Shown one piece after another: positions 2,613-64,000 of a stretch of DNA of 64,000 bases (position 1 is its first letter; the number at the start of each line of letters is the position of its first letter). Source of the stretch: Candidatus Anstonellales archaeon. GTDB taxonomy: Archaea > Micrarchaeota > Micrarchaeia > Anstonellales > J096. The position numbers and the translations under genes are program-made. Where the stretch lies: the NCBI GenBank assembly GCA_038890615.1, contig JAWAFI010000001.1:494629-558628 (forward strand), written 5' to 3'. Under the pieces are notes generated by a model. It was not told the DNA's origin. It searched no databases and worked only from the letters and a program-made list of their open reading frames with translations.

Positions 2613-3848
2613 ATGCCTTTGCTTATGCAGGCGCTTGCGCCTCCGATTAACGAAGTTACAATTGCAGCGTTCCTGCTATCTTTCTCAATAGTGGTCGCTT
2701 ACTACCTTCTAGACAAGGCATGGGAGGCTTTAAGAGGGGGAGCAGGAGCTACCTCTCCATTTACTATACCTGCCAAGAGGGAGATGAATGAATTCTTCGT
2801 AACGGTGCTCATATTCGCATTCTTCAGCATCTTGGTCTTCCTGATGGATACTGTTGTTTCTGCTTTTGTATGCGGCTCAACCACCGGCTGCAATGTGATA
2901 GAGATTGCGCATTTCTATTTGATAAGGCTTCAGGCGCTCCTTGTTAGCCAGTTCACCATAACATACCTTACTGAAACTGTTTTCGGCTTCTTTGGCTACT
3001 TAGGAGTAGGCGGCAAGCCAGACATCCTTTCATTTGTGCCATTTGGCTACAACTTAGCCCCTTTTGCTCCTCTTGGGCTCCCAACAAGCCTCCTGCTTAG
3101 GATAATAGATTTAATAGAAATGGAGCTTGGGGCAACGGTTACTAAGGTTATACTGCTTTACATAATATCCTTTGCAGTTCCTTACCACTTGCTTCCTTTG
3201 GGGTTCTTCATGCGTGCAATACCCTTTACAAGGAAAACAGGGAGCATGGTAATAGCTCTTTGCATCTCTGCGTATTTCGTATACCCTTTCAGCGTAATAT
3301 ACGGAACTTCGCTGGTTGTTGACTATATGAATGCAGAATCTCCATCAACGCTTTACCAAATATACGATGCTACTGCAAGCATGATGGGCAGCTTTCTCAA
3401 TCTTTTCTCAGGATGGACTTATAATACAGAGTTCTTCACTTCGCTAAACACCAACATAAAAGCATGGGAAGGGGCGCTTCAGGATTATGGAAATGCAATA
3501 ACTAACCCTGCTGACCCTGTTGGGAGCAGGGAAGGGGGGCTTGCAACAAAATACCAGCTTGAGTACGAAGACAAGCTTGGCGCTGCAGCAAGCGACCCTG
3601 CTTACTCAATAGGGATAGGGGTTTTAGGCCTTTTCCTTTCAATCCTCGCCAGGCCACTCTTAGTGGTTGAGCTTGTAACAGGGTTCTACAGGATGGTGGT
3701 GGTGCTGGGTATATACACCGCTCTCCAGTTTACAGGTGTGGTTGCGAGCACCTTTTTCGAGATTGTGCTTACAATAACTGCTTTCAGGGCAATCTCAGAG
3801 CTTCTCAGCGGAGAGATGGCGCTTTTTGGGATGGGGAGGCTGACTTGA
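2613..3848 (+). CDS. Polytopic membrane protein, array paralog 1 (CedA/VirB6-like?)
   Basis: Multiple hydrophobic helices; AKREMNEFF, LPLGFFMRAIPFTRKTGSMVIA, C-term GMGRLT; start placed at ATG 2613 (track uses TTG 2592). Confidence 0.8.
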   Translation: MPLLMQALAPPINEVTIAAFLLSFSIVVAYYLLDKAWEALRGGAGATSPFTIPAKREMNEFFVTVLIFAFFSILVFLMDTVVSAFVCGSTTGCNVIEIAHFYLIRLQALLVSQFTITYLTETVFGFFGYLGVGGKPDILSFVPFGYNLAPFAPLGLPTSLLLRIIDLIEMELGATVTKVILLYIISFAVPYHLLPLGFFMRAIPFTRKTGSMVIALCISAYFVYPFSVIYGTSLVVDYMNAESPSTLYQIYDATASMMGSFLNLFSGWTYNTEFFTSLNTNIKAWEGALQDYGNAITNPADPVGSREGGLATKYQLEYEDKLGAAASDPAYSIGIGVLGLFLSILARPLLVVELVTGFYRMVVVLGIYTALQFTGVVASTFFEIVLTITAFRAISELLSGEMALFGMGRLT

Positions 3849-4832
3849 ATGTTCGAGGTTTTCATCGCAGCAGCAGCGCTCCTGATGGTTGCATACATAG
3901 CAGTGCTCTACATGGCTGGCTCCTTTATGCAGAAGCCAGAATGGCACGCAATGGCAAAGGACCAGCTAAGGGAGCTTTTCCTAGCCTGCCTAATAACTAT
4001 GTCAGCAGGCGCCATGATATCAATATGCAACTACCTTGGGATAATATGGCTCCAAAGCTACTTCCCTAGCTACTCCATAGTGCAGAATGACCTTGGCAAG
4101 ACAACCTCTGCCCAGCTTGAGCAAATAATATTCAAATCCCTCATACCTATGATAGCGCGCATAGGTAGCATAGACATGCTCACTACAACCGCATCAAGCT
4201 ACTATGCAGCAGCAGGCCCGGGAAAGTGGAGGTTTGACTTCAAGGTTTTCAATGCAGCAGGGGACAGGTTCCTGCAGATAATAGGTATACTTGAGTTCAC
4301 TCTTTCAATAACGCTTGCAAGCCTTTTCATACAATCAGCAGTTCTTGACATGGCTTACCAGGTTTCAATGGAGATAATGCTCCCTTTGGGTGCTGTGCTG
4401 TTGTTCTTCCCAGTGCTAAGGAAGTCAGGGAAATTTATAGTAGCATTAGCAATAGCGTATGGCTTCTTTGCGCCATTCATATACAGCATGACGCTTGCAT
4501 CCATAGGGGATTTTTTCGCAATGAAGTCAGCTTCGAGCCCTGCAATCAATATACCATTCATAGGAGCATATGACTTTTGGGACATCTACTCAACCCCATT
4601 TATAAGGATAAGTGAGCCCTTCCTGATTTTTCTCCCAACAGGCCATGTTTTTGTGCTTGTATACTCAAACCTGTTCGCAGAAGCCGGAAAAGTGCTTTTC
4701 ATAACAGTGCTTTGCCCTGCCTTGGTTTCAATAATAACAGTTTCAACAATAAGGCCGCTTGCTGATTTCATAGAGGCGCAGTCGTTTTTGATAGACACAA
4801 GGATGATATCTGGGCCAAGCATAGGTGGTTGA
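3849..4832 (+). CDS. Polytopic membrane protein, array paralog 2
   Basis: AKDQLRELF; LPLGAVLLFFPVLRKSGKFIVA; abuts paralog 1 stop. Confidence 0.8.
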   Translation: MFEVFIAAAALLMVAYIAVLYMAGSFMQKPEWHAMAKDQLRELFLACLITMSAGAMISICNYLGIIWLQSYFPSYSIVQNDLGKTTSAQLEQIIFKSLIPMIARIGSIDMLTTTASSYYAAAGPGKWRFDFKVFNAAGDRFLQIIGILEFTLSITLASLFIQSAVLDMAYQVSMEIMLPLGAVLLFFPVLRKSGKFIVALAIAYGFFAPFIYSMTLASIGDFFAMKSASSPAINIPFIGAYDFWDIYSTPFIRISEPFLIFLPTGHVFVLVYSNLFAEAGKVLFITVLCPALVSIITVSTIRPLADFIEAQSFLIDTRMISGPSIGG

Positions 4833-6092
4833 ATGCCAGCGCAGCCGTACATTGAATTTGTTTTGCAGGCATACCAGAACTACCTGCCTTTAGCCCCTCC
4901 TTTGATCCTCCTGTCGCTTGGGCTCATAGCGCTTACCCAAGCAGTAGGGAGGTTCTTGAACATGAACCAGCTCATTGTGTGGGGCAAGCTTGAGCTTTTT
5001 GAGCTTTTCTTCTCTGCTTTTATACTCCTCATATTCCCATTTGCCCTTGGCTCCATGAATGAGATAGCAGCTACGGTAATTACTTCTCTTCCATATGGGC
5101 CAGACATATGCCCAAATGCCCAGCAGGCAACAATACCCTGCCACATAGCTTATGCAAAGCAGTTCCTGAATTCAATGTTCATAGAGCTCGACTATGTAAT
5201 TTTCAGGCAGCTTGCTTGGTATTCTGTTATAAGCTTGCTCACAAACACAGAGATTTCCTTGGAGGTTGGGATGATATCAAAGCCATGGGCGCCTTTCATG
5301 ATTTTCCATGCCAAAGAGCTAATAATAAGGGACACAGTGCAGCATATGTTTACATTCATGCTGGCTTTAAAGGTCATTGAGAACACCTTTGCTTTCATAT
5401 CCCTTTTCTTTTTCCCGCTAATGCTCATAGGTGGGGTTTTGCTCAGGATACTAAAGTATACAAGGAGGCTTGGTGGCCTGCTAATAGCAATAGCGCTGGT
5501 GTCGCATTACATAACCCCAATACCTTTCATAGTGGGCGGCATGCTTTACAACCAGTACAGGATAGACCAAGGCTTGCCGTACAGTGACTTAAAACCAGTG
5601 CTCTACAAAGCCAAAACAACCTCTTCCACAGGGGTGCCGGCAATACTTGACTTAAAAGACAATGACATTTATGATAGCTGGAAGAAAAGCTACGAGTCGC
5701 AATCGCAGGGCCAGGCGATTGATTACACAACAAGCAATATGCAATACCAGCTTAAAGATAATTTGGTCATAGAGCCATACGTTGACCCACATGATGCTTC
5801 TTCAGTGTCTTCAGGAATAGCATCATTTCTACTTGAAGCAATTTCATTCACAAAATACCTGAGCTTGTACGTTTTCACAGCAGGCTTCGGGCAGGGCGAA
5901 TCTATAGTAGACTTCATATATGGGATTGACTTAGTTAAAAAAGGAGGCGCCCTTGATGTAAGCGGTACAGTGCTGGCGTATGTTTTCTTCTTTACATTCA
6001 TTTCACTACTCTCATCAATAGCTGCAGTAAGGAGCCTTTCAGAGACATTTGGCGGGGATTCAGAGATAGCAGGGCTTACGAGGCTGATATGA
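4833..6092 (+). CDS. Polytopic membrane protein, array paralog 3
   Basis: WGKLELFELF; GGVLLRILKYTRRLGGLLIA; C-term GLTRLI. Confidence 0.8.
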   Translation: MPAQPYIEFVLQAYQNYLPLAPPLILLSLGLIALTQAVGRFLNMNQLIVWGKLELFELFFSAFILLIFPFALGSMNEIAATVITSLPYGPDICPNAQQATIPCHIAYAKQFLNSMFIELDYVIFRQLAWYSVISLLTNTEISLEVGMISKPWAPFMIFHAKELIIRDTVQHMFTFMLALKVIENTFAFISLFFFPLMLIGGVLLRILKYTRRLGGLLIAIALVSHYITPIPFIVGGMLYNQYRIDQGLPYSDLKPVLYKAKTTSSTGVPAILDLKDNDIYDSWKKSYESQSQGQAIDYTTSNMQYQLKDNLVIEPYVDPHDASSVSSGIASFLLEAISFTKYLSLYVFTAGFGQGESIVDFIYGIDLVKKGGALDVSGTVLAYVFFFTFISLLSSIAAVRSLSETFGGDSEIAGLTRLI

Positions 6093-7276
6093 TGAGGCTA
6101 ATGCACCTAATCCTCCTTCTTCTCTTGCCTGCCCTCTCAGCACAGCAGACAAACAACATACAAGAAATAACATCAAGCACCATTGATGAGAAGGCATGGA
6201 GCCAAACAATAGAGAGCCACTTGCTTCTCCAGATAATAACAAACAACTGCCAGGCAGGGCCGAGCCTTGACATGCACAGCCAATTCTTGACGCTTTCAGC
6301 AGCTGTTTTGATCACTATGCTTTCGCTGCTAATATTCCTATACTTGCTCTCTTACATAACCGATTCTGTTACAATCAGGAGCGTTGTGCAGTACGAGTTT
6401 TACTCTGTGTTCATGACAACCTTCCTCCTTTTCGCCCTTCTTGAAGTCCTTTACCTTACAATCAACCCGGTTTATGAGAAGCTTGGCATACAGGAGAAGG
6501 CATTCAGCTACTCCAACAAGATAGTTGTGAGGCTTTTCACTACGCTTGGCGCTTTCAGCGGCACCTCTTTAGTGTTAAGCGCAATAGAATCCTTAAGGAT
6601 AAGCATAAGCTTCAGGATTGTGCCTTTCTCTTTCTCAGCATCTTCATTCGTGAAGCCCATGACTGACTCTGTTGGCTTCATATCCCAGCTAACCAGCTTG
6701 GCAGTTACAGAATGGCTTGTCAAGGCAGCGCTGCTGTGCCTGATGTTCAATTACTCTTTCCCTCTGCTCATACCCATTGGGCTCTTCCTTAGGGCCATAC
6801 CAATATTCAGGGGGGCAGGCAACTCAATAATAGCAGCATCACTTGGGTTCTTCTTCATATTCCCGCTTCTTCTTGCAGTAAACGATGACATAGATGCCAA
6901 GATGTCGCTTATACTGCGCGAGAGGGAGACAATGGACAGGGCAGTGGCAGTAGTAAAGGATGTCGCAGGGGATTCTGCATTCTCAGTAAACAACGCAACA
7001 GGGGAGGAGCTTTCTGGCTGGCTGGAGAAACTCTACAACCTGCTTTTCAGGGCTATATTTTTCCCTTCGCAGCAAACTCCTATCGACCAAGGGGGCATAT
7101 GGCTCTGGGAAAAGGTGTTCTACCCTCTTTTCATACTGCGCTTTGTGTATTACTTCTTTGTTCTCAGCGCCATATTCCCGTTTATAAACATTTCAGTGCT
7201 AATAGCTGCAATAAAGGAGATAGGCCAGTGGCTTGATGCTGATGTAAAGCTTGATGTTTTCATGAGGTTGATATAG
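6089..7276 (+). CDS. Polytopic membrane protein with N-terminal signal peptide, array paralog 4
   Basis: Signal-like MMRLMHLILLLLLPALSA; VQYEFYSVF; IPIGLFLRAIPIFRGAGNSIIA; C-term FMRLI. Confidence 0.8.
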   Translation: MMRLMHLILLLLLPALSAQQTNNIQEITSSTIDEKAWSQTIESHLLLQIITNNCQAGPSLDMHSQFLTLSAAVLITMLSLLIFLYLLSYITDSVTIRSVVQYEFYSVFMTTFLLFALLEVLYLTINPVYEKLGIQEKAFSYSNKIVVRLFTTLGAFSGTSLVLSAIESLRISISFRIVPFSFSASSFVKPMTDSVGFISQLTSLAVTEWLVKAALLCLMFNYSFPLLIPIGLFLRAIPIFRGAGNSIIAASLGFFFIFPLLLAVNDDIDAKMSLILRERETMDRAVAVVKDVAGDSAFSVNNATGEELSGWLEKLYNLLFRAIFFPSQQTPIDQGGIWLWEKVFYPLFILRFVYYFFVLSAIFPFINISVLIAAIKEIGQWLDADVKLDVFMRLI

Positions 7277-8500
7277 ATGGCATCGCTTGCAGAATTACAA
7301 GGCACTTTGCTTGCCCAGCTCATGCCTGCCTATGCAGCCCTCTACAATTACGAGCCGCTTGCTCAGTCGCAGGTATGCGGCGACCCTGCTGGCTTTGTGA
7401 ATTCCCTTATGCCCCCTGTTGGGGAGGTCCTGCTCCTTTCAGTGGCTATAATTGTTTTCCTATACCTGCTTTCAAGGATCCTGGCAAACCCAATGCTGGA
7501 ATCATACGTGAAGCTTGAGCTCCAAGAGATTCTCATAACCTGCCTTATATTCATATTCTTTGGGCTGATGATACCTATCCCATGCGTTCCTGCATCTTTC
7601 CTTAGCGTGCCCCCGGCTTATTCATCGAACACAATGATTCTTGATGGAGCTGTCTACCTTTCAGAGGTAGGGTCAAACTACCTGCTGCTCGGCTACTTCT
7701 TCTCAACGCTTATGTATTACATAATATCCTTTTACTCTGTAATAATAAACGCTGCGCCCCTTGTTGGGACAGTAGTTGCGCCATTGCAGGGGCTTTCAGC
7801 AGTAATATCCCCTGTGTTCTCAACAGTTGCCACTACCTTAGGCACTGGCGTAGTAATAAACTTCGCCTACCTGCTATTCTATGATTTCATGACCTACTCT
7901 TTCTTGAAGGCAATGCTACCTATAGGGCTCTTGCTGAGGTGCTTCACGATCACAAAGAAGGCAGGGAGCGCAATAATAGCGCTCTGCCTTTCATTCTATG
8001 TGCTGTTCCCATTCCTGCTTACTTTGGAGCATTCCATTGTAATGAACTCAGGCTATGGAAATTCATTAAACATGATACTTAGGAACGTCTGGTCAACTAC
8101 TAAATATGTAAGTGATGCAATAATACCCGGCCCATCTAAGCTTGAGCCAGGAGAGGAGCTTAAAGAATGGATAGAAAAAGGCGCCAATCCAATAATCTAT
8201 GGCCTTGGGACCGCTCCTTTCCTTGCGACATTTGTTTTCCAGTTTGTTGCTGCCCTTGGCTTTATGCCAATAACAAAGCTGATAGCCCCTGCAGTGCTTG
8301 GCCAATGGATGGCATCAATAGTTGCAATACCTGCGCACATGATTGCTGCGGAGATGCTTATAACCACTTCAGTGTACGTTTTCATCAACTCAGTGATATT
8401 CCCTGCACTAAACACGCTCGTGCTCGTTGGCGCTGCGGCATCCTTTGCCCAGCTGCTAGGAGTTCAGCTTGATGTTTCAAACCTTACGAGGCTGATATGA
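7277..8500 (+). CDS. Polytopic membrane protein, array paralog 5
   Basis: VKLELQEIL; LPIGLLLRCFTITKKAGSAIIA; C-term NLTRLI. Confidence 0.8.
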   Translation: MASLAELQGTLLAQLMPAYAALYNYEPLAQSQVCGDPAGFVNSLMPPVGEVLLLSVAIIVFLYLLSRILANPMLESYVKLELQEILITCLIFIFFGLMIPIPCVPASFLSVPPAYSSNTMILDGAVYLSEVGSNYLLLGYFFSTLMYYIISFYSVIINAAPLVGTVVAPLQGLSAVISPVFSTVATTLGTGVVINFAYLLFYDFMTYSFLKAMLPIGLLLRCFTITKKAGSAIIALCLSFYVLFPFLLTLEHSIVMNSGYGNSLNMILRNVWSTTKYVSDAIIPGPSKLEPGEELKEWIEKGANPIIYGLGTAPFLATFVFQFVAALGFMPITKLIAPAVLGQWMASIVAIPAHMIAAEMLITTSVYVFINSVIFPALNTLVLVGAAASFAQLLGVQLDVSNLTRLI

Positions 8501-9480
8501 TGCTGATGATCTGGCTCAACATTTCGATTGCAATAATAGCGACGATTTTCATAGCCTCCCTCTTAGTATATATGATAGGGAAGGGGTTTATGATCCCCCA
8601 GCTGGAGTCCATTGCAAAGAAGGAAATGATATATGTGGTCTCCACTGTGCTCCTGCTCATATTCATAGAGTTGCTAGTGGTAGAGCTTGAAGGAATGCTA
8701 GTGGCAATAATGGAGCCATACATAACACAGCTTCTTGCTGTATACGGCCAGCCAGCCCCTTCAGGCCAGCTTACGCTCATAGACATGAGCATAATGTTTA
8801 TGGGAGGCCCATACAACTGCCTTGTGACTAAAATACTTCCGCCAGTGGCAGCGCTTGCATCCGACTTAAGCACAATATTCAAGGCAAAGGTTGAGGTTCC
8901 AATGCCCAACCCAAGCGGCTTTGGCGGGGTGGGGAACATCCTTGACCTCCTAAATTACTTCATAGGTGCATCTGTTGTTTTTGTTCTTGCTTATTTCTTC
9001 CTTACAAACCTATTGCTGCTTTTCAAGCACCTTTCACTTCCATTGTTCATCCCGCTTGGCATAATATTAAGGGCATTTTCACCTACAAGGGGAGCAGGTG
9101 CATACATACTTGCCTTTTCAATAGTAGGTTACTTTGTAATGCCTCTTACGTACTCCATAATTTCCCTTATATTGGGGATTTCTTTTGGCGCAGCAGGGAT
9201 TTGCCAGCCAATAGACATACCACCCTACCTCCTTATGACGCTGAATTCAGGCAGCCCGCAGACAGAAGCAGAGCAGATGGCCATAAGGACTCTCCAGTCA
9301 TCAGGGGTGATGAGCAATGTGGCAGATTCAATAGATAAGATAATAATGGGGCTCTTCATGTACCTCTGCTCAATACCTTTCATAACCCTTACCGTAGGTC
9401 TTACAACAGTCCTTTTCCTTTCTGCTGTGTTTGGGATAAACCTGCCTGAGGTAGGAAGGGGGCTAGTGAAGCTTATTTGA
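8497..9480 (+). CDS. Polytopic membrane protein, array paralog 6
   Basis: AKKEMIYVV; IPLGIILRAFSPTRGAGAYILA; C-term GLVKLI. Confidence 0.8.
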   Translation: MMLMIWLNISIAIIATIFIASLLVYMIGKGFMIPQLESIAKKEMIYVVSTVLLLIFIELLVVELEGMLVAIMEPYITQLLAVYGQPAPSGQLTLIDMSIMFMGGPYNCLVTKILPPVAALASDLSTIFKAKVEVPMPNPSGFGGVGNILDLLNYFIGASVVFVLAYFFLTNLLLLFKHLSLPLFIPLGIILRAFSPTRGAGAYILAFSIVGYFVMPLTYSIISLILGISFGAAGICQPIDIPPYLLMTLNSGSPQTEAEQMAIRTLQSSGVMSNVADSIDKIIMGLFMYLCSIPFITLTVGLTTVLFLSAVFGINLPEVGRGLVKLI

Positions 9481-9539
9481 GCCCAGCGAAACATTTAAAA
9501 ATATTGGCGACTATGCTTTTCCAGCTAAAGGTGTTTTCT

Positions 9540-10811
9540 ATGGCGAAAAAGGAGCACTTAAATGTAGTGTTCATTGGACATGTTGATGCAGGCAAGTCAA
9601 CAACAGTGGGAAGGATGCTGCTTGACACAGGTAAGATAAGCCAGCAGGTTATAGACAAGCTGAGGGAAGAGGCAGAGAGGCTCGGAAAAGCAACATTTGA
9701 ATTTGCTTTCTTGATGGACACCCTTAAGGAGGAGAGGGAAAGGGGTGTTACCATTGATGTTTCTCACCAAGAGTTTGAGACAGACAAGTTTTACATAACC
9801 ATTATAGATGCCCCTGGCCACAGGGACTTCGTAAAGAATATGATAACAGGCACTAGCCAAGCAGATGCTGCAGTGCTAGTGGTTTCTGCAAAAGACGGGG
9901 TGCAGCCCCAGACAAAGGAGCACGCCTTCTTGGCGAAAGTTCTTGGGGTAAACCAGCTCATAGTGCTTATGAACAAGATGGACGCAGTTGATTACAAAGA
10001 AGATGTGTACAAGAAGGTTAAGGCAGAGGTAGAGGCGCTCCTAAAGTCTATAGGGTATGACCCAAGCAAGGTGCCTTTTGTTGCAGGCTCCTCTTTTGCA
10101 GGGGAGAACATAGGAAAGCCAGGCACCAAGATGCCATGGTACAAGGGGCCAACGCTTTATCAGGCGCTTGATTCACTTTCAGTTCCTGTTGCACCGGTTG
10201 ACAAGCCCCTTAGGATACCAGTGGAGGATGTCCTTACCATTACTGGCCATGGAACTGTAATTGTAGGAAGGGTTGAGACAGGCAGGCTCAAGCCAGGCGA
10301 CAACATAGTAATAAACCCAGGAGGGATTAAAACAGACGTAAAGAGAATAGAGATGCACCACCAGGAGCTAAAGGAAGCAGTTGCAGGAGACAATATAGGG
10401 TTTAATGTGAAAGGGGTTGATAAGGGTGCAATAAAAAGAGGGTTTGTGGTAGGAGCTCCAGGGGCAGAGCCTACAGTTGCAGAGGAATTCACAGCCCAGA
10501 TAGTTGTGCTTAACCACCCAACTGCCATAAGCGTTGGCTACACCCCTGTATTCCATGTCAGGACAGCACAGTTCCCTGCAACAATAGTTGAGATACTGGA
10601 AAAGAAGGATCCTAAGTCAGGCGAAGTGCTGCAGAAGAACCCAGACCACATAAAAACAGGGGATGCAGCTGTAATAAGGGTGAAGCCTCTTAAGAGCGTA
10701 GTTGTTGAAAAGTTCCAGCAGTTCCCTGGGCTAGGAAGGTTTGCCATAAGGGATATGGGCCAGACTGTTGCAGCAGGCATAGTTTTGGATGTAAAGCCAA
10801 AGCAACAGTGA
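9540..10811 (+). CDS. tuf: Translation elongation factor EF-1alpha
   Basis: MAKKEHLNVVFIGHVDAGKST, ERERGVTI, DAPGHRDF, NKMD. Confidence 0.99.
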   Translation: MAKKEHLNVVFIGHVDAGKSTTVGRMLLDTGKISQQVIDKLREEAERLGKATFEFAFLMDTLKEERERGVTIDVSHQEFETDKFYITIIDAPGHRDFVKNMITGTSQADAAVLVVSAKDGVQPQTKEHAFLAKVLGVNQLIVLMNKMDAVDYKEDVYKKVKAEVEALLKSIGYDPSKVPFVAGSSFAGENIGKPGTKMPWYKGPTLYQALDSLSVPVAPVDKPLRIPVEDVLTITGHGTVIVGRVETGRLKPGDNIVINPGGIKTDVKRIEMHHQELKEAVAGDNIGFNVKGVDKGAIKRGFVVGAPGAEPTVAEEFTAQIVVLNHPTAISVGYTPVFHVRTAQFPATIVEILEKKDPKSGEVLQKNPDHIKTGDAAVIRVKPLKSVVVEKFQQFPGLGRFAIRDMGQTVAAGIVLDVKPKQQ

Positions 10812-12933: not shown

Positions 12934-13384
12934 CTTTTTTGCTCATCCTCTTTTTTGCGTATTCCTCAAATTCTCTCTCAACCCTGTATTCGTGTGCTTG
13001 GAGCACCATGTCCAAAAGGTTCATGTCCCTTACAAACTTGGCAAGCTTTGTCTTGCCTTCCCTATATTCTTTCATCAGCTTAACCCCATCCTTGCCAATC
13101 AGGGGCTCAATCTCCTTTTCTGCCTTCCTTTCAAGCGAGTCCTTCTCCTTGCTTTTTGCGTCAAAAGGTGTTATGTCGCCTGTGATTGCCTCTGCCAAGT
13201 CATGCAGAAGGGCCATTTCCACTGCCTTCTCTCTGTTTGCCTTAAACTCCTTTGCAAATGCATAGCAGAGGACTGCAGTGCTGAAAGAGTGGTCTGCAAT
13301 GCTCTCAACCTCTGCCTTTATGTGCCTGGTCCACCCTCTTCTCTCTGTTTTCTTAAGGGCTAAGATTATTTTCCAGATGCTCAT
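12893..13384 (-). CDS. HD-domain phosphohydrolase (YfbR/HDDC2-like 5'-deoxynucleotidase)
   Basis: LKKTERRGW, ESIADHS, LLHDLAEAITGDI; ATGA overlap with RuBisCO stop. Confidence 0.92.
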   Translation of the reverse strand: MSIWKIILALKKTERRGWTRHIKAEVESIADHSFSTAVLCYAFAKEFKANREKAVEMALLHDLAEAITGDITPFDAKSKEKDSLERKAEKEIEPLIGKDGVKLMKEYREGKTKLAKFVRDMNLLDMVLQAHEYRVEREFEEYAKKRMSKKAKALLAEFLGKNK

Positions 13385-14646
13385 ATTTTCTTGTGCCAAA
13401 GGTAGTACACCTGCTTCCCTCCCCATTTTTCGAGTGCAACTGCAAGCTCCTTGCATTCCTTTGCCTTTTCCTTAAGTGTTATGCCTTCTGCCACTGCATC
13501 TACTGCTGCCCTCATTGCTTTAGCCCCTGCTTCTGTGCCTTGCGGATGGCCATGCACCCCTCCCCCTCCTTGGAAAACAAAATCAGTTGAGTTGAAGGCA
13601 TTCACAACATCATAAACCTTGGTTGGATATAGGCCTCCTGAGGCAACAGGGAAAACTGGCTTTATGCCATTCTTCCTTTCAACCAAAGAGGAGTATTGTT
13701 TCCTTACTTCTTCTTTATTAGCATGCATCTTTCCTGCACCATGGTCTATATGGAGCTGGTCAACCCCCATTAGCCTGAATATCTTCGCCCAAACATGCAT
13801 CTTTACCATATTGCCCCCTCCTTCTGTGAATACACCATGCATAGCCCTGTGAGCATGGATTGGCAGTATGTTTTGGTCCCTTACCATCTGCACTGCAGAG
13901 AAGCCGCAGGTGAAGAGGTCAAGCATAATCATGTTGCCTCCATGCTCCTTAACGAAATCTGCCCTTTTCAGCATCACATCTGCATTTGCTGTTATGTTAG
14001 GGGAGTAAAGCTTTTTCTCCCCTGTTTCTTCCTCTGCCCTGTCAAGCGCCTCCAATGTCTTCACAACCCTTTCCTCAAACTTGCAGAACTTCTGGTCTGT
14101 AAGGTTCTCATCATCCTTTACGAAGTCAATGCCTCCTCTCCATGCCATCTCTGCCACTTCTGCGAATTTCTTTGCGCTAAGCCCAAGCTTTGGCTTTATT
14201 ATAGTGCCAACATGGGGCCTCCTGCTCTTCGTTGTCCCAAGATACCTTCTAATCCCTTCCATCCCTTCCTTTGGGCCAGGGAACTTTTTTTCGTACTTTT
14301 GGGGCAAATAGATGTCATCAAGCACAAGCCAATCTGCCTCTTTAACCCCAAAGACATTGCCAGAAATAGATGATAGCAGCTGAGGGATGCTTCTTTTCTC
14401 AAAGAGCCCAATAGGATATGCTATAGCCATGCTCACTACGCCCTTTTCCTTCCTCAGCTTGAAGACCTTTGCTCCAAACTTTTCTACAATCTGCCTTGAA
14501 GATGTCCATACCTCTGTCCATGTCCCCACTGAGCTTTCTGCTGCTATAATCTCTGCTATCTTTTCAGCAGGCTGGGAGCTCTTAGCCCTGAAGAAAACCA
14601 CCAGATGCTCATCATCCGGCTCAAAACCAAGCTTTATGTAGCCCAT
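13381..14646 (-). CDS. rbcL: RuBisCO large subunit, form III-type
   Basis: AAESSVGTW, SGNVFG, GTIIKPKLGL, DFVKDDENL, HAHRAMHG, LH..GAGKM, PVASGG, GGGVHGHP. Confidence 0.93.
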   Translation of the reverse strand: MGYIKLGFEPDDEHLVVFFRAKSSQPAEKIAEIIAAESSVGTWTEVWTSSRQIVEKFGAKVFKLRKEKGVVSMAIAYPIGLFEKRSIPQLLSSISGNVFGVKEADWLVLDDIYLPQKYEKKFPGPKEGMEGIRRYLGTTKSRRPHVGTIIKPKLGLSAKKFAEVAEMAWRGGIDFVKDDENLTDQKFCKFEERVVKTLEALDRAEEETGEKKLYSPNITANADVMLKRADFVKEHGGNMIMLDLFTCGFSAVQMVRDQNILPIHAHRAMHGVFTEGGGNMVKMHVWAKIFRLMGVDQLHIDHGAGKMHANKEEVRKQYSSLVERKNGIKPVFPVASGGLYPTKVYDVVNAFNSTDFVFQGGGGVHGHPQGTEAGAKAMRAAVDAVAEGITLKEKAKECKELAVALEKWGGKQVYYLWHKKI

Positions 14647-29890: not shown

Positions 29891-30709
29891 ATGCTTGACA
29901 TACTTATACAACATGTGGCGATGCCTTTCGAGGAGGTAAGAATAGTGCTTTCCCTGCTCATGATAGGGGCAGGGGCCTACTTTGACATAAAGCAGGATAG
30001 GGAGATACCTGACATGCTTGTGTACGGCTCGTTGGCTGTTTCAGCCCTAATGGCCTTGCTCCTTCCTTTTGAGCTTCTTTTATATGCAGCAGTTGTTGCC
30101 TTGCTGGTTGGGGTTTTTGGCTACATGGCTTATAAATCAGGGCAGCTTGGAAGCGCTGATGTCTTGATGTTTGTTGCGCTCTGCCTTATGCTTCCAATAC
30201 ATCCTTCATTCCTAAGCATGCCTGTCAACGTGCCATTCTTTTTCAGCGCATACATTTTCGCAAGCGTGCTTTTCATACTTTATCAGTTAATTTCAATAGT
30301 CCCAGTAATATTAGAAGATCCTTCTAATGCAAAAAAGGAGGCTCTTATAATCCTAGTACCATACCTAATCTTCGTTTATTTCTACTTCACGACCCCAATA
30401 TTCTCATTTGCCTACTTCATGCTTTTTACCTTGGTAGTGCTCTTTGCAGTGTTCTTCTATGCCTACAAGGACCAGATAATGAAATCCTTTGTTGTTGAAA
30501 TACCGCTGAGTAAGGCAGAGGAAGAGGTTGCTGCAGCAGAATACCTAAGCGTAAAGGTGAACAGGGTGATAACAAAGGATGATATAGAGCTCCTGAAGAA
30601 GAAAAGGATAAAGAAAGTGAAGATATACAAGTATGCGCCTTTCCTTCCCTTCCTTTTTGCAGGCGTGGTGCTTGGCCTCCTAATAAGTCCTCTTTCCTTC
30701 ATGTATTAA
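29891..30709 (+). CDS. Prepilin/preflagellin peptidase (A24 family)
   Basis: YFDIKQDREIPD, GSAD, C-terminal PFLPFL; multi-TM. Confidence 0.85.
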   Translation: MLDILIQHVAMPFEEVRIVLSLLMIGAGAYFDIKQDREIPDMLVYGSLAVSALMALLLPFELLLYAAVVALLVGVFGYMAYKSGQLGSADVLMFVALCLMLPIHPSFLSMPVNVPFFFSAYIFASVLFILYQLISIVPVILEDPSNAKKEALIILVPYLIFVYFYFTTPIFSFAYFMLFTLVVLFAVFFYAYKDQIMKSFVVEIPLSKAEEEVAAAEYLSVKVNRVITKDDIELLKKKRIKKVKIYKYAPFLPFLFAGVVLGLLISPLSFMY

Positions 30710-49480: not shown

Positions 49481-50782
49481 TTATTTTTTAATACTTCTAC
49501 AAAACCACTCAACCAACCTTCCAGCCCTTTTATCACAGTTCCTTAATACGATCCTTAAAGAAGCATTTATCATTTCTTCCTCCTCTTCATTAAGCCCCTT
49601 TCCTTTATCTATTTTATCTAATACACTGTTAACATCTTCTATATATTCTCTCAACATCTCTTCAATTTCTTTATCCTCATCTACTTGCAAATTCAGATAA
49701 TAAGCAGTTCTTCCAATATCATCTCTAATAAAAGGATCAGCCCCTGCCTTAATAAGGGTCTTCACTACTTCCTTATGCTTTCTAGCAACAGCCCACATTA
49801 AAGGAGTCCATCTACCATCATTATCCTGCAAATCCAAATTTGCCCCTGCCTTTATCAGCATCTCAACAATCTTCTCATGCCCGTTCTCAGCAGCATACAT
49901 CAAAGCCGTAAAACCTAAATACGAAGTAGCGTTTACATCAGCCCCTGCCTTTATCAGCATCTCAACAATCTTCTCATGCCCACTCCAAGAAGCAATCATC
50001 AACATTGTTATTCCATCACTTTTATAGTTAACATTTACTACATCAATAAGCTCGTCAATAAGCTCTGTGCACCCCCTCGCAGCGGCCCACATAAAAGCCC
50101 TCTCAAGCCCCTGGGGCTTTTCTCCCTCTTTTCTCCCTCTTTCCTTCCACTTTCTTACATCTTCTATTACTTCTTCAACCCTTTTTCTTTCTCTTTTTTC
50201 TAAAATCTTCTTAATTTTTTCATTCTTTGTACATTCATAAGCAGGTGTATGGTCTCTACATATAAAAGGATCAGCCCCTGCCTTTATCAGCATCTCAACA
50301 ATCTTCTCATGCCCGTTCTCAGCAGCCACTATCAATGCCGTCAATTCATATTTTTTATTCTGAAAATCTACATCAGCCCCTGCCTTTATCAGCACCTCAA
50401 CAACCCCCCCATGCCCCTTATCAGCAGCCATCATCAGCGCCGTCCATCCGTCATTATCCTTCACATTCACATCCGCCCCTTCCAACACCAACTTTACTAT
50501 CCTTTCTAAAGAAATCTTCTCCTTTTCCTTTCTGCATTCATTAATCAATTCCTCCCCAAGCCTCTCAGCCCTCCTCTTATCTTCCCCTTTCCTTTCCCTG
50601 TTAATCCTCCTAAGCTCCTCAAAAGCCTCTTCATCTTCTTTCCTACTCCTAACAGCCTCCAAAACCCTCCTAAATACCTCCTTATCGCTTAGCCTCCTCT
50701 CCTCTTTCATCCCTTCCCCAGCAGCCTCTTTTTTCCCTCCTTTGCTATCAAACCCCTCCTTCTCTTTATCCTTAACCTCCAT
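49481..50782 (-). CDS. Ankyrin-repeat protein
   Basis: Repeated GxTALMxAAxxGHxxIVxxLIKAGAD units. Confidence 0.95.
   Translation of the reverse strand: MEVKDKEKEGFDSKGGKKEAAGEGMKEERRLSDKEVFRRVLEAVRSRKEDEEAFEELRRINRERKGEDKRRAERLGEELINECRKEKEKISLERIVKLVLEGADVNVKDNDGWTALMMAADKGHGGVVEVLIKAGADVDFQNKKYELTALIVAAENGHEKIVEMLIKAGADPFICRDHTPAYECTKNEKIKKILEKRERKRVEEVIEDVRKWKERGRKEGEKPQGLERAFMWAAARGCTELIDELIDVVNVNYKSDGITMLMIASWSGHEKIVEMLIKAGADVNATSYLGFTALMYAAENGHEKIVEMLIKAGANLDLQDNDGRWTPLMWAVARKHKEVVKTLIKAGADPFIRDDIGRTAYYLNLQVDEDKEIEEMLREYIEDVNSVLDKIDKGKGLNEEEEEMINASLRIVLRNCDKRAGRLVEWFCRSIKK
49842..50314. repeat. Exact 41-bp intragenic repeat, three copies
   Basis: GCCCCTGCCTTTATCAGCATCTCAACAATCTTCTCATGCCC at 49842, 49941, 50274; degenerate copies at 50376 and 51121. 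Confidence 0.9.
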
Positions 50783-51577
50783 AATTTAACTTTCTTCCAA
50801 TCACTTTTTAACCCTAACTGCCCAGCAATTCCAAAATCAATCCCTTTGCTTTCTCCTTATTGCATTCCTTAAGCCCAAACCTCAGTTCAGCCTCCCTTTC
50901 CATCCTCTTCTTAACTCCTTCATCCATATTATCAACCAAGCCTTTCAAAAAACTCTTAGTTTTTTCATCTCCAGCCAAGTCCATTGCTGTTTTTCCTTCA
51001 TTATTTTTCAAAAAAAGATTTGCGCCATTTTCAATCAGCAGATTAAGAACTCCTTTTTGGTTACCATCAGCAGCCCACATCAGCGCTGTCCATCCTTTAT
51101 TGTCCTGCACATTCACATCAGCCCCTGCCTTTATCAGCATCTTTACAATCTTTTCCTGCACATCATTCCAGACAGCCTGTATCAGCGCAGTCCTTCCATA
51201 AAAATTATCCTGCAAATTCACATCCGCCCCTTCCAACACCAACTTTACTATCCTTTCTAAATTTACCATCTTTTCTGAAAAAACAAATATTATCCTTTTG
51301 CATTCATTAATCAATTCCTCCCCAAGCCTTTCAGCCCTCCTCTTATCTTCCCCTTTCCTTTCCCTGTTAATCCTCCTAAGCTCCTCAAAAGCCTCCTTAT
51401 CCTCCCTCCCACTCCTAACAGCCTCCAAAACCCTCCTAAATACCTCTTCCTCGCTTAGCCTCCTCTCCTCTTTCATCCCTTCCCCAGCAGCCTCTTTTTT
51501 CCCTCCTTTGCTACCAAACTTTTTCTTATCTTTATCCTTAACCTCCATAATTTAACTTTCCTCCAAGCACTTTTTAA
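50533..51577. repeat. About 280-bp near-identical direct repeat (50533-50811 and 51299-51577) covering promoter and 5' part of two ankyrin genes
   Basis: Visual alignment; partial third copy near 63876-63945. Confidence 0.9.
50814..51548 (-). CDS. Ankyrin-repeat protein
   Basis: GRTALIQA, GWTALMWAA, GKTAMDLA; N-terminus near-identical to 49481-50782. Confidence 0.95.
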   Translation of the reverse strand: MEVKDKDKKKFGSKGGKKEAAGEGMKEERRLSEEEVFRRVLEAVRSGREDKEAFEELRRINRERKGEDKRRAERLGEELINECKRIIFVFSEKMVNLERIVKLVLEGADVNLQDNFYGRTALIQAVWNDVQEKIVKMLIKAGADVNVQDNKGWTALMWAADGNQKGVLNLLIENGANLFLKNNEGKTAMDLAGDEKTKSFLKGLVDNMDEGVKKRMEREAELRFGLKECNKEKAKGLILELLGS

Positions 51578-60740: not shown

Positions 60741-62111
60741 TTAAGATTGGCTCAACATGTAGTTAATAAAACTATAAACCTTTTTGTCGCATCTCTCTAG
60801 CAAACGATGTAAAGCAACTTTCCAAACTTTCATTTCTTGTTCAGTTAGCTCCCCCCCTTTCTCTGCTTTTTCAATTATTTTCTCTAACTTTTCTTCATAA
60901 TCTTTTAACATCTTCTTTATTTCTTCATTATCTGCCAAATCATAAGCATTCTTTCCCTTATAATCAACAGCAAAGGGATTGGCTCCTTCTTCAAGCAGCA
61001 GCTCAACTGTATCTTTAGCCTTAAGGGAAACAGCGCACAAAATAGGGGTGGATTTATCCTTATCCCTAACCTCCAAATCAGCCCCTTTTTCCAATAACAT
61101 TTTAACTGCCTCAACTGGGTTTGGCTGGCAACAGCCTACAGCTTGACATAACAAAGGCCTCCCATCACTTGTTTTTATGTTCACATCAGCCCCTGCTTCC
61201 ACAAGAAGCTTGATTAGAGGAAGTTCAGCTCTACAACAGCCAAAGGCATAGCACAAGGCTCTATTTCCACGGTTATTCTTGGTATTTACATCAGCTCCAG
61301 CATTTAGGAGGGTCTCAACAATTTTCTCATTGCTTGCAGAAGTAGTCAGAATCAATGGGGTTGAACCATCAGAAGATTTAACGTTAACATTAGCACCATC
61401 ATCTATGAGCCTCTTAACCAACTTCAGCTTCTCCTCATAGCTTGCGTTGAGAAGAACGCTCTCTAGATTAGGCCTTTTTCCAACCCTCCCTGCTTTTTCC
61501 CACCTTTCTATCTCCTCCAACCTTTCTTCCTCAGCCTTCTTTTAAATCTTTTTTACATAACCATCGTTAGCAAATTTATATGCTCTTCGCCATTGGTTAT
61601 TTATAATAAAAGGATCAGCTCCAGCATTTAGGAGAACTGAGACAGTTTCCCTATTACCATTCCAAGCAGCATGCATCAGCGCAGTCTGTCCATATTTATC
61701 CTGCAAATCTACTTGAACCCCCAGCTTAATTAGAAGTTTAACCACCTCAATATAACCATGCTCAGCAACATGCATCAATGCACTTTTTCCTTCCTCATCC
61801 TCAACGTTTATATCAGCCCCCTCTAATATCAACCTTAAAAACTTTTCAAAATCCATCTCTTCTTTCTTGCACTCCTCCAAAAGTTCTTTGCCAAGCATTT
61901 TCCCCTTTTCCTTGTTCCTCTCATTGAGGCTCTTGAGCTCCTCAAAAACTTTATCTCCTTTACCTCTATTAAGAGCCTTTAAAAACCTCTGAATGAGCCT
62001 TTCATAATTTATCACCCTATCCTCCTTAAGGATTCGCTTAAAAACCATGCATACTTTTTTAATGGAACCTCCCTCTTCTTTCTCTTCATCCTTTTTCTTT
62101 TCAACCCCCAT
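60741..62111 (-). pseudogene. Ankyrin-repeat gene split by a single in-frame TAA (61542-61544)
   Basis: Track ORFs 61542-62111 and 60741-61520 are in one frame: YVKKI*KKAEEERLEEIERW. Confidence 0.85.
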
Positions 62112-62206: not shown

Positions 62207-63307
62207 ATGAATACAAAGGAGTTAGAAAGGCTTGTAGCACTCACTTTTGATTCTGACCCCAAGGTAAGGAAGGAAGCAGCGATAAAGCTAGGTGACCAGG
62301 ATGACCCTATTGCAAGCTTCGCGCTAATAGAGCTTACAACTGACAAGGATAAAGAAGTAAGGGAGACGGCAAAAAGATTGCTAGAGGAAAGAAAAAAGAA
62401 AGAGCCCGAGTTGCTTTCCTTTGCTGATATCTTTGAAGCAGGAGCAAAAAAAGAAGAAAAGGAAGAGATTCCTGTTACCCAGCCAGCTTTAGCCACTGAT
62501 GGAAGCAAAGAGATTGATGAGGAAAAGAAGAAAAAAATGTTGCTTTCCCCTATTGAGAGGATGTTTGAGAGAAAGTTTGGAAAGGAGAAGGCTGAGGTAG
62601 TGAAGAAGAAGCTTATGCCCTCAATAGAGAGGGTTTACGAAAAGAATATAGAAGGAGGCAAGAAGAAGGAGGAAAAGAGGGGATTCCTCCAGCAGTTCAT
62701 AAATGATTATTTCTCGGTAGTTGAGGAAGAGGAAAGCAAGAATATTGAAGAACCAGAGGAAGAAGGAATTCACAAGGTTGAACTTGACGAGATAGGCTTC
62801 AAGGAAACTGATGAATTAGTGTACAACCCAGAAGAGCAAGACTCTTCAATTAAAGGGGCAAGCATTGATGAGGCGATCTTCAACCACTTTTATAACATAG
62901 CTGTTGAGGCTAACGGGAGCGCTGTTGTGAAACACGCGCTTTACAAAGAGATGAAATCAAAGATAGACTTGGCATTCAGCATGATAGAGAAGGAGAGGAA
63001 GAAGGTGCAAAGCCTTTCTGACTTAAGGAAGGGGATGAGGAGCTTCACCTCTGAAACCCTTCATGTCAAAAAAGTTGGGAAAGGTGTATTCAGGAAATCA
63101 AAAAGGGCAGAACCACAAGAATACGTTAGGATTGAGGTTGAAGATGAAAAGGGAGGAAGCGCAGTGATTTATGTTTTTGACAAAGACGTAAGCGCAGTTA
63201 AAGAAGGAATGAAGATAGTTGTGGAGAGAGCTCCGGTTAAGGAATTCAACGGTGAGAATTCAATCCATATTAGCAAAAGCAAAGGAAGCCTTTATATAGT
63301 GGTTTAA
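62207..63307 (+). CDS. HEAT-repeat plus C-terminal SSB/RPA-like OB-fold protein
   Basis: DSDPKVRKEAA / DKDKEVRETA; SLSDLRKGM...VEDEKG...VKEGMKIVVERAPVKEFNG. Confidence 0.72.
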   Translation: MNTKELERLVALTFDSDPKVRKEAAIKLGDQDDPIASFALIELTTDKDKEVRETAKRLLEERKKKEPELLSFADIFEAGAKKEEKEEIPVTQPALATDGSKEIDEEKKKKMLLSPIERMFERKFGKEKAEVVKKKLMPSIERVYEKNIEGGKKKEEKRGFLQQFINDYFSVVEEEESKNIEEPEEEGIHKVELDEIGFKETDELVYNPEEQDSSIKGASIDEAIFNHFYNIAVEANGSAVVKHALYKEMKSKIDLAFSMIEKERKKVQSLSDLRKGMRSFTSETLHVKKVGKGVFRKSKRAEPQEYVRIEVEDEKGGSAVIYVFDKDVSAVKEGMKIVVERAPVKEFNGENSIHISKSKGSLYIVV

Positions 63308-63321
63308 GTTCTATTTTTTCC

Positions 63322-64000
63322 TTAAATAATATTTTCCAAAATTTTTACAGCCCTTTTATCGCACTCCTTTAATGTAAAGCGTAGGGCCAAACCTTTCATC
63401 TTTTCTTCCTTTTCATCCAATATTTTCCCTTTATCTATTTTATCCAATATAATCTCTGCAGTATGCTTAGCCAACATCTCTTTTGTGTCTTTGCTTCTAG
63501 CCCAATCCATTGCTGTTTTTCCTTGATTGTCTTCCAAAAAAGGGTTTGCCCCATATTTAAGTAATCGTTCTACAATCTTTTTATTATCTTCCCCAACAGC
63601 CTCAATCAAAGCTGTATACCCAAAAGTATAACTCTGCAGGTCCAGATTAGCACCACATTTGCAAAGAATTTCCACAATTTCATTATAGTTATAAAAAGAA
63701 GCATTAATCAAAGCTGTATGCCCATTTTTATCCTCCTGCAAATTTAGATTTGCCCCTTCTAAAATCAGCTTTACAACTTTTTCAACTGAAGCATCCCTAT
63801 ACCTGTCACACTCTTCTATCAGCTCTTTTCCAATCATATTGCTCCTTTCCTCTCCAATCTCTTCCCTCTTTTCCTTGTTAATCCTCCTAAGCTCCTCAAA
63901 AGCCTCCTTATCCTCCTTCCCGCTCCTAACACTCTCCAAAACCCTCTTAATAACAAAATCCTCCCCCATCCTTTCCTCCTTTAAACCACTCCTCTCAATT
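63322..64000 (-). CDS. Ankyrin-repeat protein (5' end probably beyond window)
   Basis: GHTALINA, GYTALIEA, GKTAMDWA; frame stays open upstream of ATG 63969 (IERSGLKEER). Confidence 0.9.
   Translation of the reverse strand, partial: IERSGLKEERMGEDFVIKRVLESVRSGKEDKEAFEELRRINKEKREEIGEERSNMIGKELIEECDRYRDASVEKVVKLILEGANLNLQEDKNGHTALINASFYNYNEIVEILCKCGANLDLQSYTFGYTALIEAVGEDNKKIVERLLKYGANPFLEDNQGKTAMDWARSKDTKEMLAKHTAEIILDKIDKGKILDEKEEKMKGLALRFTLKECDKRAVKILENII

Follow-up and report, generated by a model that had tools for sequence, protein, structure and literature searches.

Six tandem genes for membrane proteins

The window analysed here is a stretch of 64,000 nucleotides (G000:C1:494629-558628) from the 846 kb, 94% complete genome G000 of a Candidatus Anstonellales archaeon of the Micrarchaeota; positions elsewhere in this genome are given by contig (C1, C3 or C5). 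Among named organisms, the nearest relatives of its genes are Micrarchaeota. Near the start of the window lie six consecutive genes, A-F, for diverged membrane proteins. The original prediction, made from the letters alone, took them for paralogues resembling the archaeal CedA and bacterial VirB6 channel proteins and suggested a hetero-oligomeric transfer channel. Papers are cited by PMC accession. The locus comprises the following features, in window coordinates.

2613-3848, + strand: gene A, putative subunit 1, CedA/VirB6-like membrane protein of 411 residues (open reading frame, ORF; position-1 clade)
3849-4832, + strand: gene B, putative subunit 2, 327 residues, without R/K-L-I tail (ORF; position-2 clade)
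4833-6092, + strand: gene C, putative subunit 3, 419 residues (ORF; position-3 clade)
6089-7276, + strand: gene D, putative subunit 4, 395 residues, extra hydrophobic signal-like N-terminus (ORF; main position-4 clade)
7277-8500, + strand: gene E, putative subunit 5, 407 residues, folded model, CedA-profile match at E 1.6e-4 (position-5 clade)
8497-9480, + strand: gene F, putative subunit 6, 327 residues, GRGLxKLI tail typical of position 6 (ORF; tail)
2582-2589, unstranded: TTTAAATA, TATA-like box centred between the start of the tRNA-synthetase gene (2560, - strand) and that of gene A (2613, + strand), which diverge
1-2560, - strand: flanking class-I tRNA synthetase with HIGH motif, called leuS in the original prediction (tentative name; from the sequence)
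9540-10811, + strand: flanking EF-1alpha gene (tuf) with its own TATA-like TTTAAAAA at 9494-9501, outside the system

The coordinates and junctions of the six ORFs are as first described, with 0-nt gaps at A/B, B/C and D/E and ATGA overlaps at C/D and E/F. The six K/Q-x-E motifs and five R/K-L-I/T tails that had been noted are likewise present in the translations, B being the protein without a tail. The six are mutually homologous, as had been proposed, and strongly diverged: all 15 pairs score above 200 window-shuffles (z 3.2-11.2) at 17-28% identity, and the score of the weakest pair, C/D, is reached in 4 of the 200 shuffles. Hydropathy gives 5-8 hydrophobic segments per protein, and Pfam and NCBIfam scans of all six return no match. 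The array has a GC content of 43-47%, the same as the remaining window, and its neighbours are housekeeping genes. Run X1, from which this DNA may have come, has contigs that span the stretch in two pieces with 0 differences.

Homology to CedA and fold comparison with VirB6

The likeness to CedA noted in the original prediction holds when computed. CedA was represented by 30 loci from genomes of the order Sulfolobales, 27 of which entered the alignment. The hhalign probability between this alignment and the Micrarchaeota family is 92.0% (E 6.6e-7, 174 columns), and that for the compact single copy described below is 77.4%. The match spans a long insert and reaches the C-terminal helix, with collinear motifs: KWGPxLIxD of CedA pairs with AWAKxELxE of the family, and LGILLxSxPFRIGRxAGAxLIA with LPxGxxLRxFxxTRxxGGxLIA. 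A hidden Markov model (HMM) of the family scores up to 37.7 bits on the 30 full-length CedA homologues and at least 15 bits on 11 of them, and the control maxima are 1.0 bits (30 reversed sequences), 6.2 bits (300 shuffled sequences) and 6.0 bits (51 other membrane ORFs of G000). In the whole six-frame set of G000, the top three matches of the CedA HMM are family members; in five Sulfolobales genomes the family HMM matches in two, always within cedA. Judged by these sequence comparisons, the family is homologous to crenarchaeal CedA. Most CedA homologues at the Sulfolobales-order loci (in G186, G228 and others, L111-L135) have 440-560 residues and share the layout of the Micrarchaeota family, in which a large soluble insert precedes the last helix.

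The model of gene E is an all-helical bundle (predicted local distance difference test 82.8). Among 48,161 chains searched with an exhaustive aligner, rank 1 is the R388 VirB5/VirB6 stalk chain 7o3v_F (root-mean-square deviation 6.8, 252 of 261 residues), at a VIA Z of 7.9 that equals the scores of unrelated helical proteins and falls short of the value of about 13 required for helical bundles; rank 2 is DotA-IcmX (Z 7.5). We take chain 7o3v_F to be TrwI rather than TrwJ. Since such Z scores lie within the common range of helical bundles, it is the rank and the coverage that carry weight. Structure neighbours in the Atlas include four VirB6/TrbL clusters among ten rows (template-modelling score 0.37-0.41, by query). 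Foldseek with the same model finds nothing in the PDB at E<=0.001, a PDB sequence search with the family profile nothing below E 0.36, and Pfam TrbL/TrbL_2 match none of the six at E<=1. The structural check proposed with the original prediction is thus divided, with a VirB6 stalk at rank 1 by a score that is not decisive and no Foldseek match; a VirB6-like fold would be the best match for gene E, although not decisive alone.

The blank results from Pfam, NCBIfam and Foldseek would also suit a helical membrane family that is unrelated to CedA and VirB6 and resembles them in composition only. We consider this highly improbable, given the negative controls, the motifs that stay collinear up to and including the C-terminal helix, and an operon that joins a family member to a pilin and a split CedB (below). 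That the six proteins are channel subunits of the Ced/VirB6 type is very probable.

Fixed array positions, partner genes and distribution

We examined 25 arrays of relatives, taken from 20 regions (19 genomes, picked around listed matches) and five single-contig genomes of two other taxonomic families; the choice of regions favours arrays over single copies, but no particular gene number. Exactly six tandem members are present in 25 of 25, and the L086 contig stops just past the sixth. Each of the five single-contig genomes has a single copy besides its one six-gene array. A tree of 144 proteins was built that covers 22 arrays, with the five genomes of other families left out, and its clades track array position: all 22 proteins group together for position 1 (support 0.92), position 2 and position 3 (support 0.98), 21 of 22 for position 5 and 21 of 21 for position 6, and the main clade of position 4 takes in 16 of 22 with weak support (0.57). 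Position changes on the tree number 6, where 5 is the minimum possible, compared with a mean of 84 and a minimum of 72 in 500 within-array shuffles. The best match in another array has the same position for 128 of 131 proteins, and 93 of 100 junctions measure 15 nt or less. The R/K-L-I tail is missing from position-2 proteins in 21 of 22 arrays, so the odd C-terminus of gene B is a trait of that subunit. Because the genes group by array position, they are six old, non-equivalent subunits. Gene number and order therefore bear out the synteny expected by the original prediction, but the claim that the array is fixed between leuS and tuf fails: a leuS homologue adjoins 6 of 25 relatives' arrays and tuf none of 25, and for the latter reason we do not count tuf as part of the system.

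G000 holds 13 family members: the six of this array, a second set split as 5+1 and a single copy. The second set has positions 1-5 at C5:25463-32269 and its position 6 alone at C3:83057-84166. Its position-3 member (G000:C5:27648-30188) has 846 residues with an N-terminal Ig-like (He_PIG) insert; inserts in other arrays sit at differing positions. The single copy (299 residues, C1:230613-231512) lies in a compact operon, which consists of an 85-residue hairpin protein, the family member, a 253-residue membrane-anchored protein X and an ATPase. Among 30 orthologues of this copy, on short loci with about 1.5 kb of flank, the pilin is present in 16, X in 18 and the ATPase in 16. The compact-copy alignment used as a query returned 5 close homologues only.

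A single copy in a compact pilin-family-X-ATPase operon means that one subunit type can probably suffice, and the six could accordingly be alternatives that run on a shared motor, each assembling by itself into a homo-oligomeric channel or pilus base, for instance to suit a particular host or condition; homo- and hetero-assembly are equally open for the five RvhB6 paralogues of Rickettsiales (PMC8035066). Fixed stoichiometry better fits the six genes in unvarying order that 25 of 25 arrays show, the tight junctions and the position-specific tails, and even the broken second array of G000 retains all six types as 5+1, which makes separate channels improbable. Assembly of the six proteins into one hetero-oligomer is, on this comparative evidence, likely.

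Of the 16 hairpin proteins, 12 match T4SS_pilin (PF18895) and 6 match TrbC/VirB2. G000 has two such VirB2-like pilin genes, the second at C3:84199-84561, and its pilin copy matches the VirB2/T4SS_pilin profiles below cut-off. One Atlas cluster carries the name 'CedA1 domain' (23% of members; scores 0.89 and 0.92), which is a lead only. The lone position-6 gene is co-oriented with a long operon (G000:C3:69275-83060, L024) that encodes a 1162-residue Cys-rich protein, about ten small proteins with prepilin-like N-termini (three scanned, no Pfam match), a T2SSE ATPase and a T2SSF-like membrane protein; this type IV pilus locus adjoining the system is reminiscent of the Ups-Ced pairing. A prepilin-peptidase-like (A24) gene, slightly below the Pfam cut-off, lies in the window at 29891-30709 (+ strand), followed by a gene for a 753-residue protein without a family.

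A second X-ATPase pair is located at C5:14975-17363, with the ATPase at C5:15789-17363. This ATPase is matched in 41 of 41 genomes of the taxonomic family and order of G000, the top copies being 56-71% identical. For both G000 ATPases the best NCBIfam match is CedB (NF041017), below cut-off. In profile-profile comparison with four CedB sequences, protein X matches the CedB N-terminus with 98.2% probability (E 2.7e-14), compared with 0.1% for CedD-like N-termini. By these profiles, X and the ATPase are a CedB split over two adjacent genes, a membrane-anchored N-half of 250-290 residues and an ATPase of 480-525 residues. In 5 of the 25 arrays (L087, L092, L095, L097 and L099), pilin genes precede the six genes, and these lead directly, in one operon, into two X genes and then the ATPase. 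A motor thus exists in G000 and is operon-linked to six-gene arrays elsewhere; the window itself contains no VirB4-like ATPase, as the original prediction had stated. Its wider search for partners is answered in part, since the genome supplies VirB4/CedB-like ATPases and VirB2-like pilins, the pilin profile giving no sequence match to CedA1.

A third, HerA-like ATPase (C1:98066-99571) is judged to be a repair HerA because a NurA-like gene adjoins it. Searching plasmids with the ATPase gave distant matches only, at best 23-28% identical; pNOB8 has no family member, and its ATPase used as a query found no chromosomal loci. On the 3' side of the C5 ATPase (G000:C5:17365-21101, L021) are conserved genes for a 149-residue protein with two transmembrane segments, a 239-residue coiled-coil protein and an 872-residue membrane-anchored protein, all without a family. 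A paralogue of the coiled-coil protein comes after the other ATPase, and the last 100 residues of the ATPase form a separate gene in some relatives. The proteome table of ARM-1 (PMC11329633) lists BCS90994 ('HerA', 56.5 kDa) followed by proteins of 12.6 and 15.1 kDa, sizes that resemble the ATPase module; this is a lead, and we do not use it as evidence.

The six-protein profile matches 2,488 cluster representatives. The protein family is present in 40 of 41 genomes of the taxonomic family and order of G000 and in 135 of 151 Micrarchaeota genomes sampled, about nine in ten; both counts take in G000, and the latter also the unpublished genome G061. Some taxonomic families within the phylum have no genome with a match. 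Other DPANN groups gave none in five single genomes, two short marginal matches in 81 genomes of the phylum of G234 and none in 151 of the phylum of G237, negatives that are limited by the failure of the same search to detect CedA in 3 of 5 Sulfolobales genomes. Phylum-wide inheritance of the family is supported, in agreement with the vertical inheritance first proposed. Housekeeping flanks, ordinary GC content and carriage by 135 of 151 genomes do not describe a mobile element.

Upstream of the array, TTTAAATA is about 26 nt from either divergent start, a spacing that suits archaeal leaderless promoters, and it is possibly one bidirectional promoter shared by the tRNA-synthetase gene and gene A. 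A sigma-70 and terminator scan of the window, with models unsuited to archaea, stayed at chance level.

Assembly, cargo and relation to known systems

We propose that an ancestor of the single-copy form was duplicated to give six subunits of one ring, which, probably with one copy of each, would serve a chromosomal Ced/T4SS-like machine (T4SS, type IV secretion system) as membrane channel and pilus base. We infer a ring because the VirB6 ring of R388 sets the symmetry of its pilus: the two symmetries match, and a role in pilin recruitment has been proposed (PMC9259494). The split CedB would power the ring. In the order of G000 a further duplication would have copied the whole set. The two sets probably rely on one motor, the C5 ATPase (G000:C5:15789-17363), because the genome, with its two six-gene sets and its single copy, encodes only two such ATPases. 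The variable loops would face outward and contact partner cells. DNA import in Sulfolobales uses CedA, CedA1, CedB and CedD (PMC9905601, PMC11823120), and a CedA-CedE hetero-oligomer has been suggested (PMC11868833). Since both channel and motor resemble those of Ced, imported DNA is the most plausible cargo; by this analogy, the chances that it is the main one appear evenly balanced. Imported DNA might serve repair or as a source of nucleotides. A RuBisCO large chain gene lies in the window at 13381-14646 (- strand); archaeal RuBisCO forms work in nucleoside salvage, which would suit DNA as food. Taken as a whole, the reading that six CedA homologues co-assemble into a Ced/T4SS-like channel and pilus base and import DNA from contacting cells is held tentatively, at a little short of an even chance.

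Several results weigh against it, besides the ordinary Z score and the blank Foldseek search. The CedA signal is uneven (median 8.5 bits), with 3 of 5 Sulfolobales genomes giving no match, and the curated CedA model NF041796, whose cut-off is passed by just 4 of 61 long crenarchaeal CedA homologues, finds nothing in G000 at E<=10. The pilin profile matches neither CedA1 (E 3.7 or worse) nor the family N-terminus, so the CedA1-like N-terminus reported for CedA is not reproduced. No motor or pilin gene lies near array A-F, and in the five other-family genomes profiles assign array positions only partly. The R388 VirB6 is a pentamer and not a hexamer (PMC9259494). Finally, no CedD was detected, although Sulfolobus cannot import DNA without it (PMC11823120); in the 94% complete genome, the CedD/VirD4-like model NF053655 matches only HerA and the two CedB-like ATPases, none over cut-off.

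The absence of CedD from the G000 profile search would also fit the same hetero-oligomeric VirB6-like machine employed for host attachment or for protein export to the host, a reading modelled on the relaxase-less T4SSs of Patescibacteria and on Rickettsiales. The variable loops, the Ig-like inserts and neighbours of 1000-1640 residues at several arrays appear adhesive. Patescibacteria keep a relaxase-less T4SS, whose virB6 proved essential to one epibiont (PMC12102498). Ankyrin-profile matches in G000 number 59, and some bacteria use ankyrin proteins as T4SS effectors. Of the archaeal families compared, however, the channel and the N-half of the motor are closest to the DNA-importing Ced system, and ankyrin genes are not found in 19 of 41 genomes although the ATPase is kept in 41 of 41, a distribution that rules out ankyrin proteins as conserved cargo. 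We regard attachment or export as unlikely, yet it is a strong rival because CedD was not found, the inserts look like adhesins and Patescibacteria offer a parallel.

Five ankyrin-repeat genes with charged N-termini lie in the window (49484-51548, 60741-62111 and 63322-63969), and a GC-skew dip at 49-52 kb is attributed to those located there. With Ank_2 matches numbering 59 in G000, 73-99 in three relatives and none in 19 of 41 genomes, the set is a lineage-specific expansion, unusual for a small archaeal genome. HEAT-repeat-like proteins are encoded at G000:C5:9397-10811 and in the window at 62207-63307, the latter being the copy scanned.

Electron cryo-tomography of a DPANN symbiont shows tubes and a docking barrel of unassigned composition (PMC11329633). 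The ring could be a dock and inlet on the symbiont side for host-made metabolite nanotubes, such as the 21-nm barrel of the ARM-1 envelope, whose components may be symbiont proteins (PMC11329633); presence of the family in 135 of 151 Micrarchaeota genomes would suit such a part. The R388 stalk is 9.2 nm wide, far narrower than 21 nm (PMC9259494), the system has its own pilins and nothing ties its genes to the barrel, which leaves this role quite improbable. A further version, in which most Micrarchaeota contact their hosts through an obligate hetero-hexameric VirB6-type channel that takes in host DNA or nucleotides or else releases effectors, a second six-gene set having been added in the order of G000 for other partners, is doubtful.

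The closest known systems are Ced (CedA, CedE, CedA1, CedB and CedD; Sulfolobales/Desulfurococcales) and Ted (Thermoproteales). Like Ced, the system is chromosomal, has a CedA-homologous membrane protein and a CedB-homologous motor including the N-terminal domain, and in the compact operon of Micrarchaeota has a small pilin gene directly upstream. In contrast to Ced, with its one or two such proteins, it has six paralogues in a fixed set, and a genome can carry as many as three channel sets. Its CedB is divided between two genes, the N-half being present twice next to six-gene arrays; its pilin resembles bacterial VirB2 profiles more closely than CedA1; no CedD was detected, and further conserved genes follow the ATPase. 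VirB6/TrbL (TrwI of R388, PDB 7o3v) and DotA are the best fold matches of the gene E model; R388 VirB6, however, is a homopentamer on a mobile plasmid, whereas array A-F has housekeeping neighbours, ordinary GC content and no Pfam TrbL match. Rickettsiales RvhB6 is similar in that a host-dependent cell encodes four to five VirB6 paralogues, which are strongly diverged and in some cases greatly extended (PMC8035066), but belongs to a bacterial diderm T4SS and is an analogue of array A-F. Patescibacteria, ultra-small epibionts, have a domesticated, mostly relaxase-less T4SS with VirB2, VirB4 and VirB6 homologues; it is of the bacterial MPF-FATA type, and a fixed six-gene VirB6 set is not mentioned in the accessible part of that paper (PMC12102498). 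Our literature search, with most subscription papers beyond its reach, found no description of such a system in Micrarchaeota or DPANN, and neither 'VirB' nor 'Ced' occurs in the main text of PMC11329633. A hetero-hexameric symmetry or subunit plan is undescribed for T4SSs in the literature consulted.

In summary, CedA homology, the fixed six and the partner genes support the original interpretation in part, and the leuS-tuf setting is not supported. The finding bears on how DPANN symbionts exchange material with their hosts and names a concrete candidate machine of six channel subunits, a pilin and a split CedB, which is amenable to existing co-cultures. It extends Ced-like systems beyond crenarchaea and would show clearly how a homo-oligomeric secretion channel can become a set of six fixed subunits, with a bearing on the RvhB6 question in Rickettsiales.

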